Below are positions 25,169-64,000 of a DNA stretch of 64,000 bases, piece by piece; within the stretch, counting starts at the first letter, position 1, and each line of letters begins with the position of its first letter. This DNA is from an uncultured Gammaproteobacteria bacterium (GTDB taxonomy: Bacteria; Patescibacteriota; Patescibacteriia; UBA1558; UBA10009). Made by a program: the position numbers and the translations under genes. Below the pieces are notes generated by a model, which saw only the letters and a list, made by a program, of their open reading frames with translations, did no database searches and was not told the origin of the DNA. The stretch is taken from contig CAZPMS010000006.1 of the NCBI GenBank assembly GCA_964588165.1, forward strand, positions 3,425 through 67,424, in the 5' to 3' direction.

Positions 25169-25228
25169 AAATTTTAGCTACTAGATACAACCCCAGCCAA
25201 AGGCTGGTGAGCCTACGGCTCATACTCG

Positions 25229-31374: not shown

Positions 31375-31995
31375 TTATCCTTTAAAATCGTTTTTATATA
31401 TAAAATCTACAATATTTCGTATTTGACTCATGTACGGTAGATACATATCATGTAAAATGACTTTCTTTAATTGCCATTTTTCTATGTTTATATCCCGTTC
31501 AGATTTGTCACGATATTTAGCTTTCAACAATGCAATATTTTCAGGTGTATCAACCAAAATATTAAGATTGGATTGATTCTTAAAAATTATAGATGATAAT
31601 AACCCCTCAAAAAGAACTAATTTACATTTAGAAGCATCAATGTAAATTTCTTTATCTAACTCTCCGTTACTAATATTGTAACAATTTTTTTCTACAAATT
31701 TCTGTTTTTGTTTAATTTTTTCTAACACCTCCTGTGCCTTTTCTTTATTATACCAATCCATCAAAACACCTTTATCTTGCTCAAATTTATCTTTCCACTG
31801 TGTTCGAGGGATCTTGAAAAATAAATCCATCGTAAGTAAAATGGATTCTTTAAGGGAATATTTAATAATCTGATCTGCAAGATAACTTTTACCACTTCCT
31901 ACAATACCCTCAATAACTATAATAACTGGAAAATTTGTTTGCTCCTGTAAACTAATTATTTTTTGCTTAATTTTTTTAAATGTTACTGAGTCCAT
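31375..31995 (-). CDS. P-loop kinase (uridine kinase / phosphoribulokinase-like)
   Basis: Walker A GIVGSGKS at the N-terminus; 206 aa. Confidence 0.4.
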   Translation of the reverse strand: MDSVTFKKIKQKIISLQEQTNFPVIIVIEGIVGSGKSYLADQIIKYSLKESILLTMDLFFKIPRTQWKDKFEQDKGVLMDWYNKEKAQEVLEKIKQKQKFVEKNCYNISNGELDKEIYIDASKCKLVLFEGLLSSIIFKNQSNLNILVDTPENIALLKAKYRDKSERDINIEKWQLKKVILHDMYLPYMSQIRNIVDFIYKNDFKG

Positions 31996-32034
31996 AAAAT
32001 TCCCTTTTCAGTAATTAATATCTTATCATGCAAA

Positions 32035-32130
32035 TGGCAGGGATTTGCCCCGCTTTTCGTGAAAGGCGGGATAAAAACCCAGACCAACGGTTTTGGACCC
32101 AGCCCTTCGCGAAGGGCTGGGTGGAGACCC
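32035..32130 (-). pseudogene. partial copy of the tRNA-Trp 3' half interrupted by two GC-rich hairpins
   Basis: Minus strand reads GGTCTCCA[cccagcccttcgcgaagggctgggtcc]AAAACCGTTGGTCTGGGTT[tttatcccgcctttcacgaaaagcgggg]CAAATCCCTGCCA. It matches positions ~29-76 of the adjacent tRNA-Trp and has no 5' half. Confidence 0.6.
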
Positions 32131-32148
32131 TCAAAAATCATATTATTT

Positions 32149-32223
32149 TGGCAGGAGCGCTAGGATTTGAACCCAGACCAACGGTTTTGGAGACCGTCAT
32201 GCTACCATTGACACCACGCTCCC
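32149..32223 (-). tRNA. tRNA-Trp (anticodon CCA)
   Basis: GGGAGCGTGGTGTCAATGGTAGCATGACGGTCTCCAAAACCGTTGGTCTGGGTTCAAATCCTAGCGCTCCTGCCA; cloverleaf with anticodon loop CTCCAAA; CCA encoded. Confidence 0.85.
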
Positions 32224-32258
32224 ATCAAAAAAATATGATTATCTTAAATTTAATCTCT

Positions 32259-32483
32259 TTAAAAGACCATGATAAGCGATCCATATTGTTTTAGTTTTCT
32301 TTCCCTCACTTTGGCATCTATTTCTTTCTGATACGCTTCATAATAAAACAATTTGGGATTTTTCATCCGTTTAGTAGTATACACTTTTCCACTTTTATGT
32401 TCAGACAATCGTCTATTTAGGTTATTAGTATACCCTATGTATATTTTCCCATGATCATCAAGTTGTAAATAAACATAATACAT
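32259..32483 (-). CDS. small GIY-YIG nuclease family protein (74 aa)
   Basis: YYVYLQLDDHGKIYIGYTNNLNRRLSEHK matches the GIY-(10)-YIG...R...E core; ends 35 nt upstream of tRNA-Trp. Confidence 0.65.
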   Translation of the reverse strand: MYYVYLQLDDHGKIYIGYTNNLNRRLSEHKSGKVYTTKRMKNPKLFYYEAYQKEIDAKVRERKLKQYGSLIMVF

Positions 32484-32552
32484 AATCGCTTTTCTTAATT
32501 CTTAAAAATAGATATCAAAAAACACTACTTACCGATTACTGTTTACTAATAA

Positions 32553-32963
32553 CTAATTTCTCAGATACTGTTCAAGATTTAAATCATCAATAAGTTCTGG
32601 AAATTTCTTTAGCAAATAAACATGGCGATCTGTTCTTTCACCGGTAGCCTCATTAAACAGTGGGTTGCTGCCGGTATATACTGTATCTTTACTGTTACCG
32701 TATTTATTCAGGTTTTTTTCTTCCAGCCATTGGTCTATTTTTTCTTTGCCTTGTGAAGTGAGTTGAGCCACGAAATCATCAGCCCATCCTTCACCCTGTT
32801 CTTCCCACCAGTTTTGAGCTTCATCCAAACCTTGGTTGATTAGTAAAGGAGTTTTTTCTTCAACTTTAGTTTGCCAAGAAGCCAGCCAGGCAGAAATATC
32901 TTCATGCCAGATAAGGCCGACTAAAGCACCCATTATTATTATGAATAAAAGCGTCTTTATCAT
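32553..32963 (-). CDS. hypothetical secreted or membrane-anchored protein, Trp/acidic-rich (136 aa)
   Basis: N-terminal hydrophobic helix followed by an acidic, W-rich soluble region. Confidence 0.45.
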   Translation of the reverse strand: MIKTLLFIIIMGALVGLIWHEDISAWLASWQTKVEEKTPLLINQGLDEAQNWWEEQGEGWADDFVAQLTSQGKEKIDQWLEEKNLNKYGNSKDTVYTGSNPLFNEATGERTDRHVYLLKKFPELIDDLNLEQYLRN

Positions 32964-32981
32964 ACTTTTGATAAATTTAGC

Positions 32982-33137
32982 TTATTTAGTTTCTTTGTGG
33001 AGGGTATGTTTTTTACAATGTTTACAGAATTTCTTAAGTTCCAATCTTTCCTTTAAAGTTTTTTTGTTCTTTCTGGAATATTGGTTGACTCTTTTGCACT
33101 CTGTACATTCTAACTTTATCAAGTTATCTTGCGACAT
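32982..33137 (-). CDS. rpmG: 50S ribosomal protein L33
   Basis: 51-aa [54 protein letters not shown] with the C-x2-C...C-x2-C L33 pattern; missed by the ORF track (<60 aa). Confidence 0.85.
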
Positions 33138-33211
33138 AGTATTTTTAGTTAAATTACAAATTATTTAATGGCCGCGCCATGAAGTTTATGAGCGCAGCGA
33201 ATAATACTTCA

Positions 33212-33286
33212 TGGAGCCGAGAAGAGGAATCGAACCCCCAACCTACAGTTTACAAAACTGTTGCTCTACCATTGAGCTATCTCGGC
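33212..33286 (-). tRNA. tRNA-Thr (anticodon TGT)
   Basis: GCCGAGATAGCTCAATGGTAGAGCAACAGTTTTGTAAACTGTAGGTTGGGGGTTCGATTCCTCTTCTCGGCTCCA. Confidence 0.85.
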
Positions 33287-33308
33287 GTGTATCTATTTTT
33301 AAAATGTT

Positions 33309-33415
33309 CCTACAGTTTATGCCGCCTTTAGGAGGTGGCAAAACTGTTGCTCCCTGCCCCGTTTACTCCAAACAAATGTGAGGAGTTATGCGGGGTACCA
33401 TTGAGCTACAACGGC
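33309..33415 (-). pseudogene. partial tRNA-Thr(TGT)-like 5' copy with hairpin insertions in the D-loop and anticodon loop
   Basis: GCCGTTGTAGCTCAATGGTA[ccccgcataactcctcacatttgtttggagtaaacggggcagg]GAGCAACAGTTTTG[ccacctcctaaaggcggcataa]ACTGTAGG. Acceptor GCCGTTG differs from the intact gene (GCCGAGA). No T-arm or 3' end. Confidence 0.6.
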
Positions 33416-33553
33416 TCGTTAGACTCACGATGCCTCTCAACTTCGTTCGAGACACTCGACTTCTTCTTAATATATCTCATTATATATCTCATTAATAAAT
33501 TATGGTCGTAGGCCACGAGCGTAGTATCGAACAAAGTGAGATACGAAGTCGAG

Positions 33554-33638
33554 TGGTGGGCCGGGCAGGATTCGAACCTGCGAAGGCAGAGCCAACAGAT
33601 TTACAGTCTGTCCCGTTTGACCGCTTCGGTACCGACCC
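33554..33638 (-). tRNA. tRNA-Tyr (anticodon GTA), long variable arm
   Basis: GGGTCGGTACCGAAGCGGTCAAACGGGACAGACTGTAAATCTGTTGGCTCTGCCTTCGCAGGTTCGAATCCTGCCCGGCCCACCA. Confidence 0.85.
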
Positions 33639-33885
33639 ACAAATTTTTAACTAGCTCCTTAAAGGCTCTTCCTCCTTTATAAGATTTTATCAGAAGCTCT
33701 CTTTTATATGCATCTTGTTTAGAAAAATATCTTTCCGAATAAACCAACTTCCAAGGGACACCTGATTTTGTTGATTTTACAAAACCTTTATTATGTCTAG
33801 CTAAACGATTAAATAAATTCTTACAATGACCTGTATAGTATCTATCTAAAGATTTACTATGCAATATATAAACTATAAACATCAC
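33601..33885 (-). CDS. small GIY-YIG nuclease family protein (94 aa) whose last 13 codons and stop lie inside tRNA-Tyr
   Basis: FIVYILHSKSLDRYYTGHCKNLFNRLARHN GIY-YIG core. The C-terminus WVGTEAVKRDRL* is encoded by the tRNA-Tyr 5' half (tgggtcggtaccgaagcggtcaaacgggacagaCTGTAA), with TAA sitting in the anticodon loop. Confidence 0.6.
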   Translation of the reverse strand: MMFIVYILHSKSLDRYYTGHCKNLFNRLARHNKGFVKSTKSGVPWKLVYSERYFSKQDAYKRELLIKSYKGGRAFKELVKNLWVGTEAVKRDRL

Positions 33886-33938
33886 TTTTCATTTAAGATT
33901 TATGCCCGCCTATGGCGGCACCCCGCCGTAGGCGGTGG

Positions 33939-33995
33939 CAGTCTGTCCCGTTTATCCCGCCAAAGGCGGCGATTTGACCGCTTCGGTACCGACCC
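33939..33995 (-). pseudogene. partial copy of the tRNA-Tyr 5' half ending after anticodon-loop ...CTG, with a D-loop hairpin insertion
   Basis: GGGTCGGTACCGAAGCGGTCAAA[tcgccgcctttggcgggata]AACGGGACAGACTG then unrelated hairpin sequence; lies immediately upstream of the GIY-YIG ORF. Confidence 0.65.
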
Positions 33996-33997
33996 GA

Positions 33998-34085
33998 TGG
34001 AGCCGTTGTGCGGACTCGAACCACAAACCCCTTCCTTACCCCCGCAAGATTTCGTTTCACTCAATCTGCGGGGCAAGCATGGAAG
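33998..34085 (-). pseudogene. partial tRNA-Thr(GGT)-like 3' half with a 39-nt hairpin in the anticodon loop
   Basis: CTTCCATG[cttgccccgcagattgagtgaaacgaaatcttgcggggg]TAAGGAAGGGGTTTGTGGTTCGAGTCCGCACAACGGCTCCA; 3' acceptor strand CAACGGC complements the GCCGTTG of the 5' fragments. Confidence 0.6.
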
Positions 34086-34103
34086 TATATCCTGCCAATA
34101 GCC

Positions 34104-34179
<76 letters not shown>

Positions 34180-34202
34180 GCCTGGCTATTGGCAAAAAAT
34201 AA

Positions 34203-34273
34203 AAGTGCTCCCTGCCCCGCTTACTCCGAACAAAAGTAGGAGTTATGCGGGGTACCAACTGAGCTACAACGGC
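34203..34273 (-). pseudogene. partial tRNA-Thr(GGT)-like 5' fragment with a D-loop hairpin
   Basis: GCCGTTGTAGCTCAGTTGGTA[ccccgcataactcctacttttgttcggagtaagcggggcagg]GAGCACTT. It stops in the anticodon stem, where the 3' fragment at 33998..34085 begins (CTT overlap). Confidence 0.6.
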
Positions 34274-34318
34274 AATAATGTTTTTTTAAAAAAACATATT
34301 CTTATGGCATAACTTCTT

Positions 34319-34371
34319 TCTACCCCAGCCAAAGGCTGGTCCGCCTCTGACGGAAACTGAGCTATGTCGGC
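34319..34371 (-). pseudogene. third truncated tRNA 5' fragment with a D-loop hairpin
   Basis: GCCGACATAGCTCAGTT[tccgtcagaggcggaccagcctttggctgg]GGTAGA. Confidence 0.45.
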
Positions 34372-34394
34372 ACGTTAGGCATTACTTTATTTAA

Positions 34395-35279
34395 CTATAA
34401 CTTCTCAATCACTTCCTTAAATTCTGATAATTTTTGATTTTCAGGATTAACTTCCTTTAACTGGCTAAAAGCCTTTAAAGCAGCACCTTTATCTCGGACT
34501 ATTATACTGACTTCTATCAAAAAGTCAAGAACTTTGGGGTTATTAGGCTCAATACTGGCAGCACGGCTAATTATTTCAAAGGCCTGTTCCGGCTCATCTA
34601 AATTTAAATATACTTCGGAAAGGTCCAAATAGCTGGAAATATCGGTTGAATCTAATTCTAAAGATCTCTGTAACTCCTGCTGGGCCTTTTTTAAATCACC
34701 TTTATCTGAAGCAATTTCACCCAAGCTCCGATAAACAGAAGAATCCTGATCGTTTAAATTTAATAGGAATTCAAAGGTTTCTTTAGCGTGTTCGTAATCT
34801 TTCTGTTCTAAATAAAGTTTGCCTAAGCCTTTATAGGCAATAGTGTTTTTATTATCAACCTGCAGGATTTCAATATACTTTTTTTCCGCTTCAGCATATT
34901 TGCCAAGTTTAGCTAAAGTTTCTGCTTCAGTTAAAAGCTGGTTAGTAAACTGCTGTTTATCAACTTTATCTTTAAAGCTTGATTTGAGCGTCTTGTGCCT
35001 GTATTTTTCCTCCAACTCTATCAAGCGCTGATACCAATTTTTAGATTTACTTATAATTAGTCTGCCCAAGGGTTTTAAAAATAATAATGATTTATCCAGA
35101 GTTCCTTTAAATCTTCTATCTAACCTTTCTTCTAAAATTTTTCTTTTTACCTGAAGCTGCTTTACCATGGGGGTTGCCTTAGAATTTACAGCTACTGCCT
35201 TGGGTACCTTCTTTAAAAAAATGTAAGCAATAACTCCCAAGCTAACTATAATGATTACTATTAAAACGTAAAAAAACAT
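34395..35279 (-). CDS. TPR-repeat protein with N-terminal transmembrane anchor
   Basis: 294 aa; N-terminal helix, then several 34-aa TPR-like units (AEAEKKYIEILQVD..., AKETFEFLLNLN...). Confidence 0.6.
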   Translation of the reverse strand: MFFYVLIVIIIVSLGVIAYIFLKKVPKAVAVNSKATPMVKQLQVKRKILEERLDRRFKGTLDKSLLFLKPLGRLIISKSKNWYQRLIELEEKYRHKTLKSSFKDKVDKQQFTNQLLTEAETLAKLGKYAEAEKKYIEILQVDNKNTIAYKGLGKLYLEQKDYEHAKETFEFLLNLNDQDSSVYRSLGEIASDKGDLKKAQQELQRSLELDSTDISSYLDLSEVYLNLDEPEQAFEIISRAASIEPNNPKVLDFLIEVSIIVRDKGAALKAFSQLKEVNPENQKLSEFKEVIEKL

Positions 35280-41063: not shown

Positions 41064-41125
41064 TATCTGCGGAATATCTGCGTGTCATCTGCGCCTGCCC
41101 GCCTATTGCGGGGTCAATCTGCGTT
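41064..41125 (-). promoter_or_regulatory. array of four ATCTGCG heptamers (reads CGCAGAT in the direction of the downstream gene)
   Basis: ttATCTGCGgaatATCTGCGtgtcATCTGCGcctgcccgcctattgcggggtcaATCTGCGtt, ending 15 nt upstream of the ybaK-like start. Confidence 0.5.
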
Positions 41126-43518: not shown

Positions 43519-43548
43519 CGTCATTCCGAGCGAGGCTAAACCCTCGCC
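43519..43548. repeat. H1-family short element (gtcattccgagc + gcgaggctaaaccctcgcc hairpin)
   Basis: cgtcattccgagcgaggctaaaccctcgcc; the hairpin module is identical to one in the 52379..52560 composite element. Confidence 0.55.
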
Positions 43549-48732: not shown

Positions 48733-48811
48733 GTTTTACTGGATATCAAAAAACTCAATAAAATTGAGCCTTTTTTATGGCTGCCGGGGCTGGATTTTCA
48801 CCCCGCCGTAT

Positions 48812-48886
48812 TGGCTGTGGAGACAGGACTCGAACCTGTAACATTCGCATTAACAGTGCGACGTTCTACCATTGAACTACTCCACA
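48812..48886 (-). tRNA. tRNA-Asn (anticodon GTT)
   Basis: TGTGGAGTAGTTCAATGGTAGAACGTCGCACTGTTAATGCGAATGTTACAGGTTCGAGTCCTGTCTCCACAGCCA. Confidence 0.85.
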
Positions 48887-48975
48887 ACTAATGTAGATAG
48901 ACGAAAATACTGCCCGCCAAAGGCGGGTCCGCCCTTGGCGGAAACTACCCGGCAAACTTGTTCGCCGAAGAGGCG

Positions 48976-52378: not shown

Positions 52379-52560
52379 CGACGAGGATAAATTCCTCGCC
52401 TGCGGAATATTATATTTATTAGCGAGGCTAAACCCTCGCCTGAACGATCTACTATCCCCAAAGTTGAGCAGAGGGTTTAGCCTCTGCATAAAATCCGTAG
52501 ACTATAAATGTAATAAATTACTTAACAAAATACCGTAACAGAGGAATTTATCCTCTGCAA
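52379..52560. repeat. ~180-bp composite nested palindrome in the purN-purD spacer
   Basis: gaggataaattcctcgcc...gcgaggctaaaccctcgcc...gcagagggtttagcctctgc...cagaggaatttatcctctgc; the outer and inner arms are mutually reverse-complementary. Confidence 0.7.
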
Positions 52561-63400: not shown

Positions 63401-64000
63401 CTAATTATTCATTTTATCCCTTAAACCGTTCAACCATTTATCTGCCATTTCTTGAACTGATAAATTGATAATTTCTTGTACCGACGCAATGTCATCCTGA
63501 GCGGAGCCAAAGGATTGCGTCGCTACCTTTAGCGACTGACCACCAGTCTTACCTATTTCAATAGCTTCAATATTATATTTCTCACAAATCTTCTGTACCG
63601 ACGCAACATCCTTAGTTTCTAAAACAAAGCCGCCTGTTTCGGAAAATAATTTCCCTGACGGATAAATTCCGTCAGCTGCGGTTTGGGTGAATTCTATTTC
63701 GCAGCCAATTTTATTTTTCCCATTCCCGCCAAAACACATTTCAGCAAGAGCAACTGCCAATCCACCGTCTGATATATCATGGCAAGCCAACAGTAATTCA
63801 TTATCAATCATATCTGTTACTGCATATATTTGATTTTCTGCCTCTTTAAAATCAGGCTTTGGCACATTGGCACCTAACTCGTTATGGATTTGATAGTAGA
63901 CCGAACCGCCCAGTTCATCTTTACGTTGGCCAATTAATAAAATTGACGAACCGGTTTTTTTAAATTCCATAGTAATGGCCTTATTATAATCCTGAATTCT
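63401..64000 (-). CDS. purL: phosphoribosylformylglycinamidine synthase subunit PurL, C-terminal part; continues beyond the window end
   Basis: The open frame continues upstream of the M at 63970 to the window edge. PurL C-terminal AIRS_C-like region. Contains an in-frame hairpin element (see repeat 63482..63536). Confidence 0.75.
   Translation of the reverse strand, partial: RIQDYNKAITMEFKKTGSSILLIGQRKDELGGSVYYQIHNELGANVPKPDFKEAENQIYAVTDMIDNELLLACHDISDGGLAVALAEMCFGGNGKNKIGCEIEFTQTAADGIYPSGKLFSETGGFVLETKDVASVQKICEKYNIEAIEIGKTGGQSLKVATQSFGSAQDDIASVQEIINLSVQEMADKWLNGLRDKMNN
63482..63536. repeat. H1-related palindromic element in frame within purL
   Basis: cgacgcaatGTCATCCTGAGCggagccaaaggattgcgtcg plus gtcgctacctttagcgac hairpins; encodes ...SFGSAQDDIASV... 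Confidence 0.55.

Follow-up and report, generated by a model that had tools for sequence, protein, structure and literature searches.

A hairpin-interrupted tRNA-Thr(TGT) fragment in a patescibacterial genome, a probable relic of tRNA gene displacement by nuclease-bearing cassettes

Positions 33309-33415 of the 64,000-nucleotide stretch of contig CAZPMS010000006.1 analysed here (the window; GTDB lineage Patescibacteriota) hold a truncated tRNA pseudogene, with clear tRNA homology, an incomplete cloverleaf and an anticodon split by 19 nucleotides (nt). We favor, with a probability of roughly 0.62, the explanation that this fragment is the displaced, dead 5′ part of an earlier tRNA-Thr(TGT) gene, left by homing-endonuclease-like cassettes that would carry a replacement tRNA. 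All five tRNA genes of the window are accompanied by partial or split older copies with GC-rich hairpins at loop tips, and cassettes with UPF0213-type (~80 amino acids, aa) GIY-YIG genes would be the simplest account of the whole set.

The tRNA-Thr(TGT) fragment

Read on the minus strand, the fragment is laid out as 20, 43, 14, 19 and 11 nt, in which three pieces of tRNA alternate with two hairpins (Table 1). After excision of both inserts, 42 of the remaining 45 nt match positions 1-45 of the adjacent intact gene, and the mismatches are confined to acceptor positions 5-7 (GTTG versus GAGA). The insert-free 45-mer has a local alignment score of 76 against the intact gene, compared with a mean of 12 and a maximum of 27 for 2,000 shuffles and at most 23 for random 45-mers drawn from the window. 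These values bear out the initial annotation, which had recognized a 5′ copy of tRNA-Thr(TGT) beside the intact gene, and they exclude a resemblance that would be no better than random once the hairpins are masked. The lengths it had given hold for the D-loop hairpin (43 nt) and the copied part (45 nt), but the insert in the anticodon loop measures 19 nt instead of 22, and the spacer to the intact gene 22 nt instead of 23. Neither ARAGORN nor Rfam calls a tRNA at 33309-33415 and, as the copy ends after the anticodon arm, the fragment cannot yield one. The surrounding 2.6-kb region is 100% identical across three independent assemblies, and a fourth, shorter contig is 100% identical over its 357 nt (ENA twice, JGI and Logan), which rules out an assembly artefact.

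To judge by its parts, the fragment is a mosaic. The D-loop and anticodon arm are of TGT type, not GGT type, while the GCCGTTG acceptor and the 43-nt hairpin, here called h1, are as in the Thr(GGT) fragment found upstream. The two hairpins had been described as nearly identical, and indeed h1 shares 39 of 43 nt, with one 1-nt gap, with the hairpin at 34211-34252, and both sit at the same D-loop site between GGTA and GAGC. Both fold stably, with energies of −16.2 and −19.3 kcal/mol. No further copies of h1 occur in the window, nor in the other loci fetched for comparison (given L numbers below) except copies of the same genome. Both Thr isoacceptors have thus been superseded as the annotation had supposed, the old copies having GCCGTTG and the same D-loop hairpin and the working genes GCCGAGA. 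The expectation that the GCCGTTG fragments would resemble each other more than the intact genes fails for this fragment, which is identical to its own neighbor outside the acceptor and the hairpin.

The second, 19-nt insert resembles hairpin B of the tRNA-Tyr remnants (TGCCGCCnnnGGCGGCA followed by TAAA). Its 3′ half together with TAAAC recurs upstream of the intact Thr(TGT) gene in L160, which retains exactly AAAGGCGGCATAAAC, that is, the 3′ half of the window's 19-nt hairpin and the rest of the loop. The Thr(TGT) remnants in L155, L007 and L160 are all broken at the same site as in the window, directly after TTTTG.

Two of the neighboring spacers, 33416-33553 (after tRNA-Tyr) and 33170-33211 (after Thr(TGT)), contain the inverted repeats CTCGACTTC...GAAGTCGAG and CCATGAAGT...ACTTCATGG and two copies of the direct repeat AATGAGATATAT. 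Hairpins similar to CATGAAGT also follow tRNAs in L142 and L160.

Clean, invaded and decayed alleles in relatives

The source organism stands close to Komeilibacteria and Kerfeldbacteria within Patescibacteria, and syntenic loci of related genomes provide alleles with and without such fragments. In L135, L137 and L140 the region is clean, with Tyr, Thr(GGT) with a GCCGTTG acceptor, Thr(TGT), rpmG, a gene for a 136-aa protein and Trp, and with no fragments and no nuclease gene. The functional Thr(GGT) genes of L008, L135, L137 and L142 have the acceptor GCCGTTG. Its presence on the intact Thr(GGT) of clean or less-invaded relatives marks the GCCGTTG copy as the older resident and the nested GCCGAGA gene as the newcomer. 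A comparison of L138/L139 with L140/L141 gives the presence and absence of a single 162-nt block at tRNA-Trp, between flanks that are ~98% identical and next to the same 135-aa protein. This block consists of a Trp 5′ remnant with two perfect palindromes and the first codons (a stump) of a GIY-YIG open reading frame (ORF).

The complete arrangement of remnant, nuclease ORF and replacement tRNA is found in the window (Tyr), L136, L142 (Tyr and Thr-GGT), L008 (Trp), L148 and L151 (Ser). In L142, two GIY-YIG genes lie against Thr(GGT) and Tyr, each after hairpin-bearing 5′ remnants. The Tyr composite is common to the window, L136 and L142 and is absent from L135 and L137. A pair of hairpins, A and B, stands between G34 and T35 in L136, L142, L145 and L007 as it does in the window, and different resident Tyr 5′ halves (those of the window and L142, of L145, and of L007) bear this same pair at the same site. 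The Tyr remnant of L142 lacks the D-loop hairpin found in the window. In L007 (Kerfeldbacteria), all five visible tRNAs are nested in older copies, each between inverted repeats of 13-25 nt, and in L151 the working tRNA-Ser differs clearly in sequence from the remnant. An intact copy adjoins nearly every interrupted one, as seen in the window, L007, L008, L136, L138, L142, L148, L151, L152, L155 and L160; only a degenerate Thr(GGT) remnant, close to the contig start of L136, departs from this.

The order of the cluster varies among these genomes, being Tyr-Thr(GGT)-Thr(TGT) in L135 and L137 versus Thr(GGT)-Tyr-Thr(TGT) in the window, L006, L007, L008 and L142. Positions 1-400 of L152 hold tandem tRNA-Ala(GGC) fragments in which the whole anticodon arm is replaced by the 15-nt hairpin TCCCGCAAGGCGGGA, beside a GIY-YIG ORF and the stump of a second ORF.

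GIY-YIG genes beside tRNA genes

Two GIY-YIG ORFs lie in the window, at tRNA-Tyr and tRNA-Trp, and match PF01541 with E-values of 8e-12 (33601-33882) and 8e-13. Among solved structures, that of the UPF0213 protein 1ZG2 comes closest. Relatives have 79-83 aa, with Y5, Y16, G18, R26, H30 and E62 invariant or nearly so among 28 of them, and the longer predicted products of the family result from read-through into tRNA or hairpin DNA. In all fetched contexts the ORF ends 0-7 nt from a tRNA gene, overlaps the start of the tRNA or lies beside it. The adjoining tRNAs are Tyr, Thr-GGT, Trp, Ser-GGA, Ser-CGA and Ala-GGC, with a hairpin-bearing fragment of the same tRNA alongside. The contact between nuclease gene and tRNA is also seen in a Saccharibacteria genome and in L152, which is probably not from Patescibacteria, judged by its neighboring genes.

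A profile search of 1.84 billion representatives returned 4,615 clusters (represented at 50% identity) at E≤1e-10, and peptide motifs were counted in the best 150 of these, with reversed sequences as the control. C-terminal tails that translate tRNA 5′ ends (..ERWQSG, ..GEVAEWPKA, ..VDTQAVN) are present in 30 of 150 versus 2 in the control, N-terminal extensions that translate T-arms in 14 versus 1, and peptides of the type 'GGVPP.AGK', which correspond to the translated hairpin pair A and B (GGCGGGGTGCCGCCnnnGGCGGCA), likewise in 14 versus 1; since the motifs were picked after the data had been seen, these counts are indicative. Taken with the contexts above, they point to a clear association of the GIY-YIG family with tRNA genes.

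Some features of individual ORFs may be added. The Tyr-side ORF has lost its own stop codon, and its last 38 nt (33601-33638) are read into the tRNA, ending at the TAA of the anticodon loop; protein P0022 shares its C-terminal tail (..VDTEAVKRDRL). Proteins P0053 and P0054 (205-214 aa) are tandem duplications of a unit comprising the translated 3′ end of a tRNA and the GIY-YIG domain, which suggests tandem tRNA-nuclease arrays in some genomes.

Remnants at the other tRNA genes of the window

The tRNA genes of the window, as identified by ARAGORN and Rfam, are Trp, Thr(TGT), Tyr, Thr(GGT) and Asn, all on the minus strand, and Rfam at permissive thresholds gives nothing in the window beyond these five. 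The Thr(GGT) locus displays three nested generations, with acceptors GCCGACA, then GCCGTTG, then GCCGAGA. The homolog of its oldest remnant, L142 991-1048, sits directly 5′ of an intact GIY-YIG ORF of 81 aa. When the 5′ and 3′ parts of the middle generation are joined in silico without the three inserts, ARAGORN calls a tRNA-Thr(GGT) with the acceptor strands GCCGTTG/CAACGGC. This outer copy is itself mosaic, its acceptor and T-arm being like those of L142 and its anticodon arm like that of the inner gene; the outer copy of L160 has the same type of anticodon arm. The current Thr(GGT) is flanked by the inverted repeats GCCAATAGCC/GGCTATTGGC (27-nt arms, 81% complementary, with a 10-nt core), and the right-hand junction of its nesting is also present in L160.

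The Tyr remnant has a D-loop hairpin at 33951-33972 and the hairpin pair A and B at 33903-33938, between G34 and T35. The anticodon loop of the Trp remnant holds a perfect palindrome of 24 nt, and the T-loop a 28-nt hairpin. At tRNA-Asn, which lies 15 kb from the main cluster with no nuclease ORF nearby, the outer acceptor strands TGCCGGG/CCCGGCA are complementary to each other and belong to a stem that differs from that of the inner gene (TGTGGAG/CTCCACA), and the mini-hairpins are in the D-loop.

A near-consensus match to a sigma-70-type promoter (TTGACT-16-TATAAT, 11/12) lies on the minus strand at 34501-34528, inside the 3′ end of a TPR gene and ~130 nt upstream of the oldest Thr remnant. 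Taken by itself this match is not significant, and a promoter and terminator scan of 31900-34600 gave counts not above those of shuffles. Such a promoter could drive the whole tRNA/nuclease array.

Placement and distribution of the hairpin inserts

The inserts fold as plain stem-loops. By manual count, 10 of the 11 insert sites in the window are in or bordering a loop, for which the rough binomial probability under uniform junctions is ~0.002; the events are not all independent. Loops of other hairpins also act as hosts, as in L145 (possibly chimeric), where a hairpin is nested in the loop of hairpin A. This preference for loop tips is a hint that cutting or insertion may be directed by structure. 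The few hundred bases at the tRNA remnants hold a strong concentration of perfect GC-rich hairpins, in a window of 36% GC. Near-identical dispersed hairpins include h1 (two copies), CCAGCCTTTGGCTGG (two copies, identical at 25193 and 34325) and the hairpins resembling B in the Tyr and Thr(TGT) remnants. A possible target-site duplication, TCCA, flanks only the Trp anticodon palindromes of the window and L138, and none is found at the other inserts. Stem mismatches, counted to tell constraint on the RNA from constraint on the DNA, comprise 15 G-U versus 9 A-C, in a set for which the automatic hairpin caller merged adjoining hairpins. The direct repeat formed by remnant and intact gene runs uninterrupted over 45 nt in L142 and is broken into blocks of ≤24 nt in the window. 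Possible roles for the hairpins are an element end, a binding site for the nuclease, a stabilizer of the 5′ untranslated region of the nuclease mRNA, or a breaker of the direct-repeat homology that would otherwise allow deletion of the cassette.

A few GC mini-hairpins also occur in ordinary intergenic DNA, at 25193-25221 and at 41098-41112 (CCCGCCTATTGCGGG at 41098). The 15-mer CCAGCCAAAGGCTGG at 25193 has an exact counterpart at 34325-34339, in the oldest Thr(GGT) remnant. A metagenome scan with the 15-mer CCATGCTTGCCCCGC, part of the Thr(GGT) anticodon insert common to the window and L007, returned only chance matches in GC-rich contigs. A second family of hairpins, with AT-rich loops and apparently unrelated to tRNA genes, is found at 43529-43548, 52382-52400, 52421-52440, 52468-52487 and 63655-63675; one form, GCGAGGCTAAACCCTCGCCT, is present in two identical copies, with CGAGGATAAATTCCTCG and GACGGATAAATTCCGTC as its relatives.

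Table 1. Coordinates of tRNA genes, tRNA remnants, inserts and GIY-YIG ORFs in the window
Feature	Coordinates	Strand	Description
Older Thr(TGT), positions 1-20, GCCGTTGTAGCTCAATGGTA	33396-33415	-	Acceptor GCCGTTG, D-stem 5′ strand and D-loop; 17/20 versus intact gene, mismatches only at positions 5-7
h1, 43-nt GC-closed hairpin, CCCCGCATAACTCC...GGAGTAAACGGGGCAGG	33353-33395	-	At D-loop 3′ edge (GGTA/GAGC); fold −16.2 kcal/mol
Older Thr(TGT), positions 21-34, GAGCAACAGTTTTG	33339-33352	-	D-stem 3′ strand, anticodon stem 5′ strand, loop start; exact 14-nt repeat of 33253-33266
19-nt hairpin insert, CCACCTCCTAAAGGCGGCA	33320-33338	-	Splits anticodon, between TTTTG and TAAAC
Older Thr(TGT), positions 35-45, TAAACTGTAGG	33309-33319	-	Exact repeat of 33242-33252; copy stops here, without T-arm or 3′ acceptor strand
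AT-rich spacer, 22 nt	33287-33308	-	Between fragment and intact Thr(TGT)
Intact current tRNA-Thr(TGT), acceptor GCCGAGA	33212-33286	-	ARAGORN and Rfam (73 bits)
Oldest Thr(GGT) remnant	34319-34371	-	GCCGACATAGCTCAGTT, two 15-nt mini-hairpins and GGTAGA; homologous to L142 991-1048, 91% over 58 nt
Putative stump of deleted GIY-YIG ORF start, ATGTTTTTTT...	34278-34297	-	Suggested by position and 9-nt match to L142 ATGTTTTTTGTTTATG
Middle-generation Thr(GGT) 5′ part, acceptor GCCGTTG	34203-34273	-	Second h1 copy (42 nt, 34211-34252) in D-loop
Unit holding current Thr(GGT), acceptor GCCGAGA	34086-34201 (gene 34104-34179)	-	Nested in anticodon stem of GCCGTTG copy
Middle-generation Thr(GGT) 3′ part, ..CAACGGCTCCA	33998-34086	-	38-nt hairpin (34040-34077) in anticodon loop
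tRNA-Tyr 5′ remnant, positions 1-42	33896-33995	-	42/42 after insert removal
Intact tRNA-Tyr	33554-33638	-	ARAGORN, Rfam
Intact tRNA-Trp (32149-32223), then tRNA-Trp 3′ remnant (32035-32132)	32035-32223	-	Remnant with 8-nt deletion, 5′ part missing
Intact tRNA-Asn (48812-48886) between older-copy stumps	48778-48954	-	5′ stump 48908-48954, TGCCGGGTAGTT and two mini-hairpins; 3′ stump 48778-48807, ..CCCCGGCAGCCA
GIY-YIG ORF, 93 aa	33601-33882	-	Between Tyr remnant and intact tRNA-Tyr; PF01541
Second GIY-YIG ORF, 74 aa	32259-32483	-	C-terminus probably damaged; 35 nt upstream of tRNA-Trp; relative upstream of Trp in L008, stump in L138

Interpretation and alternatives

The initial annotation had suggested that one process displaced both Thr isoacceptors. 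Displacement as such is partly supported, but the process is not specific to Thr, as all five tRNAs of the window are affected, and it is linked to a GIY-YIG nuclease. In the scheme we favor, a cassette with the nuclease gene and a complete or 5′-partial replacement tRNA would enter the cognate tRNA gene of a genome that lacks it, copied there through break repair. The replacement tRNA would keep the host viable, and the interrupted resident gene would persist merely as fragments around the newcomer. GC-rich palindromic hairpins would mark these fragments, at the tips of D, anticodon or T loops or inside other hairpins. Over time the nuclease gene would be deleted, leaving a remnant, a short spacer and an intact tRNA as at Thr(TGT), and repeated rounds would give nested copies as at Thr(GGT). 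We infer both the cleavage of tRNA genes by the nuclease and the repair-mediated copying. A nuclease gene presumably once stood in the 22-nt spacer of Thr(TGT), by analogy with the ORF stump between remnant and intact Trp in L138 and with the window's own 34278-34297. Hairpin pair A and B accompanies the nuclease gene across distant family members. The inserts as a whole have no consistent target-site duplication.

Several observations weigh against this explanation. The Thr(TGT) locus itself has no nuclease gene and no recognizable stump. Positions 8-45 of the fragment are identical to the intact gene at all 38 sites, as a simple local duplication would also make them. No GCCGTTG-type Thr(TGT) occurs among the sampled relatives, and L136 and L142 carry GCCGAGA-type Thr(TGT) yet have no remnant there. 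Working tRNAs are often identical to the remnant over the shared part, which leaves their escape from cleavage unexplained. The nuclease is a bare catalytic domain, without the DNA-binding domain that provides I-TevI and the Seg proteins with a long recognition site, and no relatives of it were found on viral contigs. The peptide counts, as said, are indicative. The similarity of L145 and L146 to L142 starts exactly at the start of a hairpin (L145:1290-1460, L146:800-850), with unrelated genes leftward; L145 is 100% identical to L142 over 1,156 nt right of that junction. Both contigs may reflect real transfers or rearrangements or may be chimeric, and they are not relied on.

The lack of a stump, the identity at positions 8-45 and the absence of a GCCGTTG-type Thr(TGT) from the relatives also speak for a purely local origin. 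The first 45 nt of Thr(TGT) would have been duplicated in tandem by slippage or unequal exchange, with no nuclease cassette ever involved; GC palindromic mini-elements would then have colonized the dead copy, and conversion by the Thr(GGT) remnant would have supplied the acceptor and the 43-nt hairpin. The mini-hairpins in ordinary intergenic DNA (25193, 41098) fit such colonization, as does the L142 Tyr remnant without a D-loop hairpin, which suggests that hairpins accumulate over time. We regard this origin as a real alternative, though considerably less likely than displacement. It leaves unexplained why all five tRNAs are affected and why the same composites have nuclease genes in relatives, and also the break at a single shared TTTTG site in the Thr(TGT) remnants of L155, L007 and L160. 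Additionally, had one conversion tract from the Thr(GGT) remnant supplied both features, the D-loop would have been converted as well, yet it is still of TGT type.

One further hypothesis, which partly overlaps with displacement, is that the fragments are kept for an RNA or DNA function, be it as a structured 5′ leader by which the transcript of nuclease and tRNA is stabilized or regulated, as a scaffold for processing or as the end by which a mobile unit is recognized. Hairpins A and B are conserved at the nucleotide level beside many distant members of the nuclease family (the 14 of 150 versus 1 given above) and, in the window, L136 and L142, precede the start codon of the nuclease by 20-30 nt. 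The junctions of the remnants are shared between genomes in which a neighboring protein is only ~60% identical, and the remnants have undergone little decay by point mutation. A retained function is nonetheless distinctly improbable here, as no ORF that the Thr(TGT) remnant could serve lies downstream of it, the truncation of remnants differs between genomes and the stem mismatches (15 G-U versus 9 A-C) show no clear strand asymmetry.

Far less probable still is that the interrupted copies function and that their hairpins are taken out of the transcript, like the intervening sequences of archaeal multi-intron or split tRNAs. The inserts are indeed placed in loops, in silico excision gives valid tRNAs for the outer Thr(GGT) of the window and for the outer Thr(TGT) and Trp of L007, and the rRNA genes of Patescibacteria are known for many insertions at stem-loop tips (PMC11270868). 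The present fragment and the Tyr, Trp and Asn remnants, however, cannot form a full tRNA; the outer Tyr of L007 remains uncalled after insert removal, the outer Thr(TGT) ends in TCA rather than CCA and the outer Thr(GGT) has a damaged D-stem. An intact copy adjoins nearly every interrupted copy. Inserts in the anticodon would moreover demand exact rejoining, and we know of no bacterial machinery that rejoins an anticodon-interrupted tRNA exactly. For 33309-33415 itself an archaeal-type intron is rejected, because the 3′ half is absent. Attachment-site scars of integrase-mediated islands or prophages, for which tRNA genes are classic integration sites and whose integrated islands are flanked by partial tRNA duplications, are effectively refuted by sizes and gene content, as the duplicated parts are mostly 5′ portions, the 'island' would be 22-300 nt long, clean and invaded alleles differ by 162 nt and no integrase lies nearby.

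A wider proposal can be made tentatively, and we would ourselves doubt it more than the displacement of Thr(TGT). Small UPF0213-type GIY-YIG proteins may be the nucleases of an undescribed selfish element that targets tRNA genes, inserts at loop tips, brings its own replacement tRNA and has the hairpin pair as its end mark. The GC hairpins would be its non-autonomous derivatives or scars, and through its repeated invasions tRNA genes, and acceptor stems above all, would be turned over and exchanged horizontally in Patescibacteria and beyond. Insertion at loop tips would possibly reflect structure-specific rather than sequence-specific cleavage. If true, tiny GIY-YIG proteins without assigned function, a very large family (>4,600 clusters at 50% identity), would gain a biological role, and bacterial tRNA genes would be open to repeated replacement by selfish cassettes that supply the substitute themselves. 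The proposal would also account for tRNA-like debris that is liable to confuse tRNA annotation in Patescibacteria and provide a mechanism for horizontal turnover of tRNA acceptor stems, and a compact nuclease that may recognize DNA structure over sequence would be of interest in itself.

Comparison with known systems

Mobile GC-rich palindromes are familiar from AT-rich genomes, among them the GC clusters of yeast mitochondria, Rickettsia palindromic elements and repetitive extragenic palindromic (REP) elements, and they may sit inside RNA genes. Like GC clusters, the hairpins described here are short GC-rich palindromes in an AT-rich genome with near-identical copies at several sites. Unlike them, they prefer the loop tips of dead tRNA copies, include a pair that travels with a nuclease family and have no transposase in sight. 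The archaeal multi-intron, split and permuted tRNAs share with them the interruption of D-, anticodon- and T-loops and the presence of similar inserts at the same position in different tRNAs. Those archaeal genes, however, are functional by means of the bulge-helix-bulge splicing endonuclease, whereas here the host is a bacterium, most copies are truncated and nearly all have an intact copy.

SegB of phage T4 has ~220 aa with DNA-binding modules, acts in phage co-infections and is not known to leave partial tRNA duplicates or hairpins. It is a GIY-YIG homing endonuclease encoded among tRNA genes, whose site includes the tRNA T-psi-C motif, and its gene and the neighboring tRNA genes are inherited preferentially (PMC2330249). 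The likeness lies in the GIY-YIG gene among tRNA genes; cleavage has been demonstrated for SegB, whereas we infer it here.

In Patescibacteria, or the candidate phyla radiation (CPR), rRNA genes have insertions mostly at the tips or bases of stem-loops, of which many are short and without an ORF; some encode homing endonucleases, and GIY-YIG proteins are found in non-intron insertions (PMC11270868). Such insertions sit in the gene that functions and are regarded as either tolerated or removed, whereas the interrupted tRNA copy here is dead and its replacement stands beside it. The main text of that paper (PMC11270868) makes no mention of tRNA. In the literature covered, to which subscription journals do not belong, we found no account of tRNA genes that lie nested within their older copies, or of UPF0213-type GIY-YIG genes as elements associated with tRNA genes.

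The closest documented parallel is that of the mobile endonuclease ORFs of fungal mitochondria, which bring along a gene end of foreign origin that displaces the native end (Allomyces atp6; Glomus atp6, atp9, cox2 and nad3), the native and inserted portions differing in phylogenetic affinity (PMC3630166). In both systems an endonuclease ORF (a GIY-YIG in one fungal case) would travel together with a substitute for part of the gene, whose function is preserved, and the native part is left adjoining as a dead duplicate (PMC3630166). The fungal targets are protein-coding genes of an organelle whose 3′ end is replaced, whereas here the 5′ part or the whole of bacterial tRNA genes would be replaced; a bare nuclease domain of 80 aa, remnants filled with GC hairpins and nested events further set the present case apart. 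The finding thus seems to fall under endonuclease-driven displacement of gene fragments, with the Thr(TGT) fragment as a small scar of that process.

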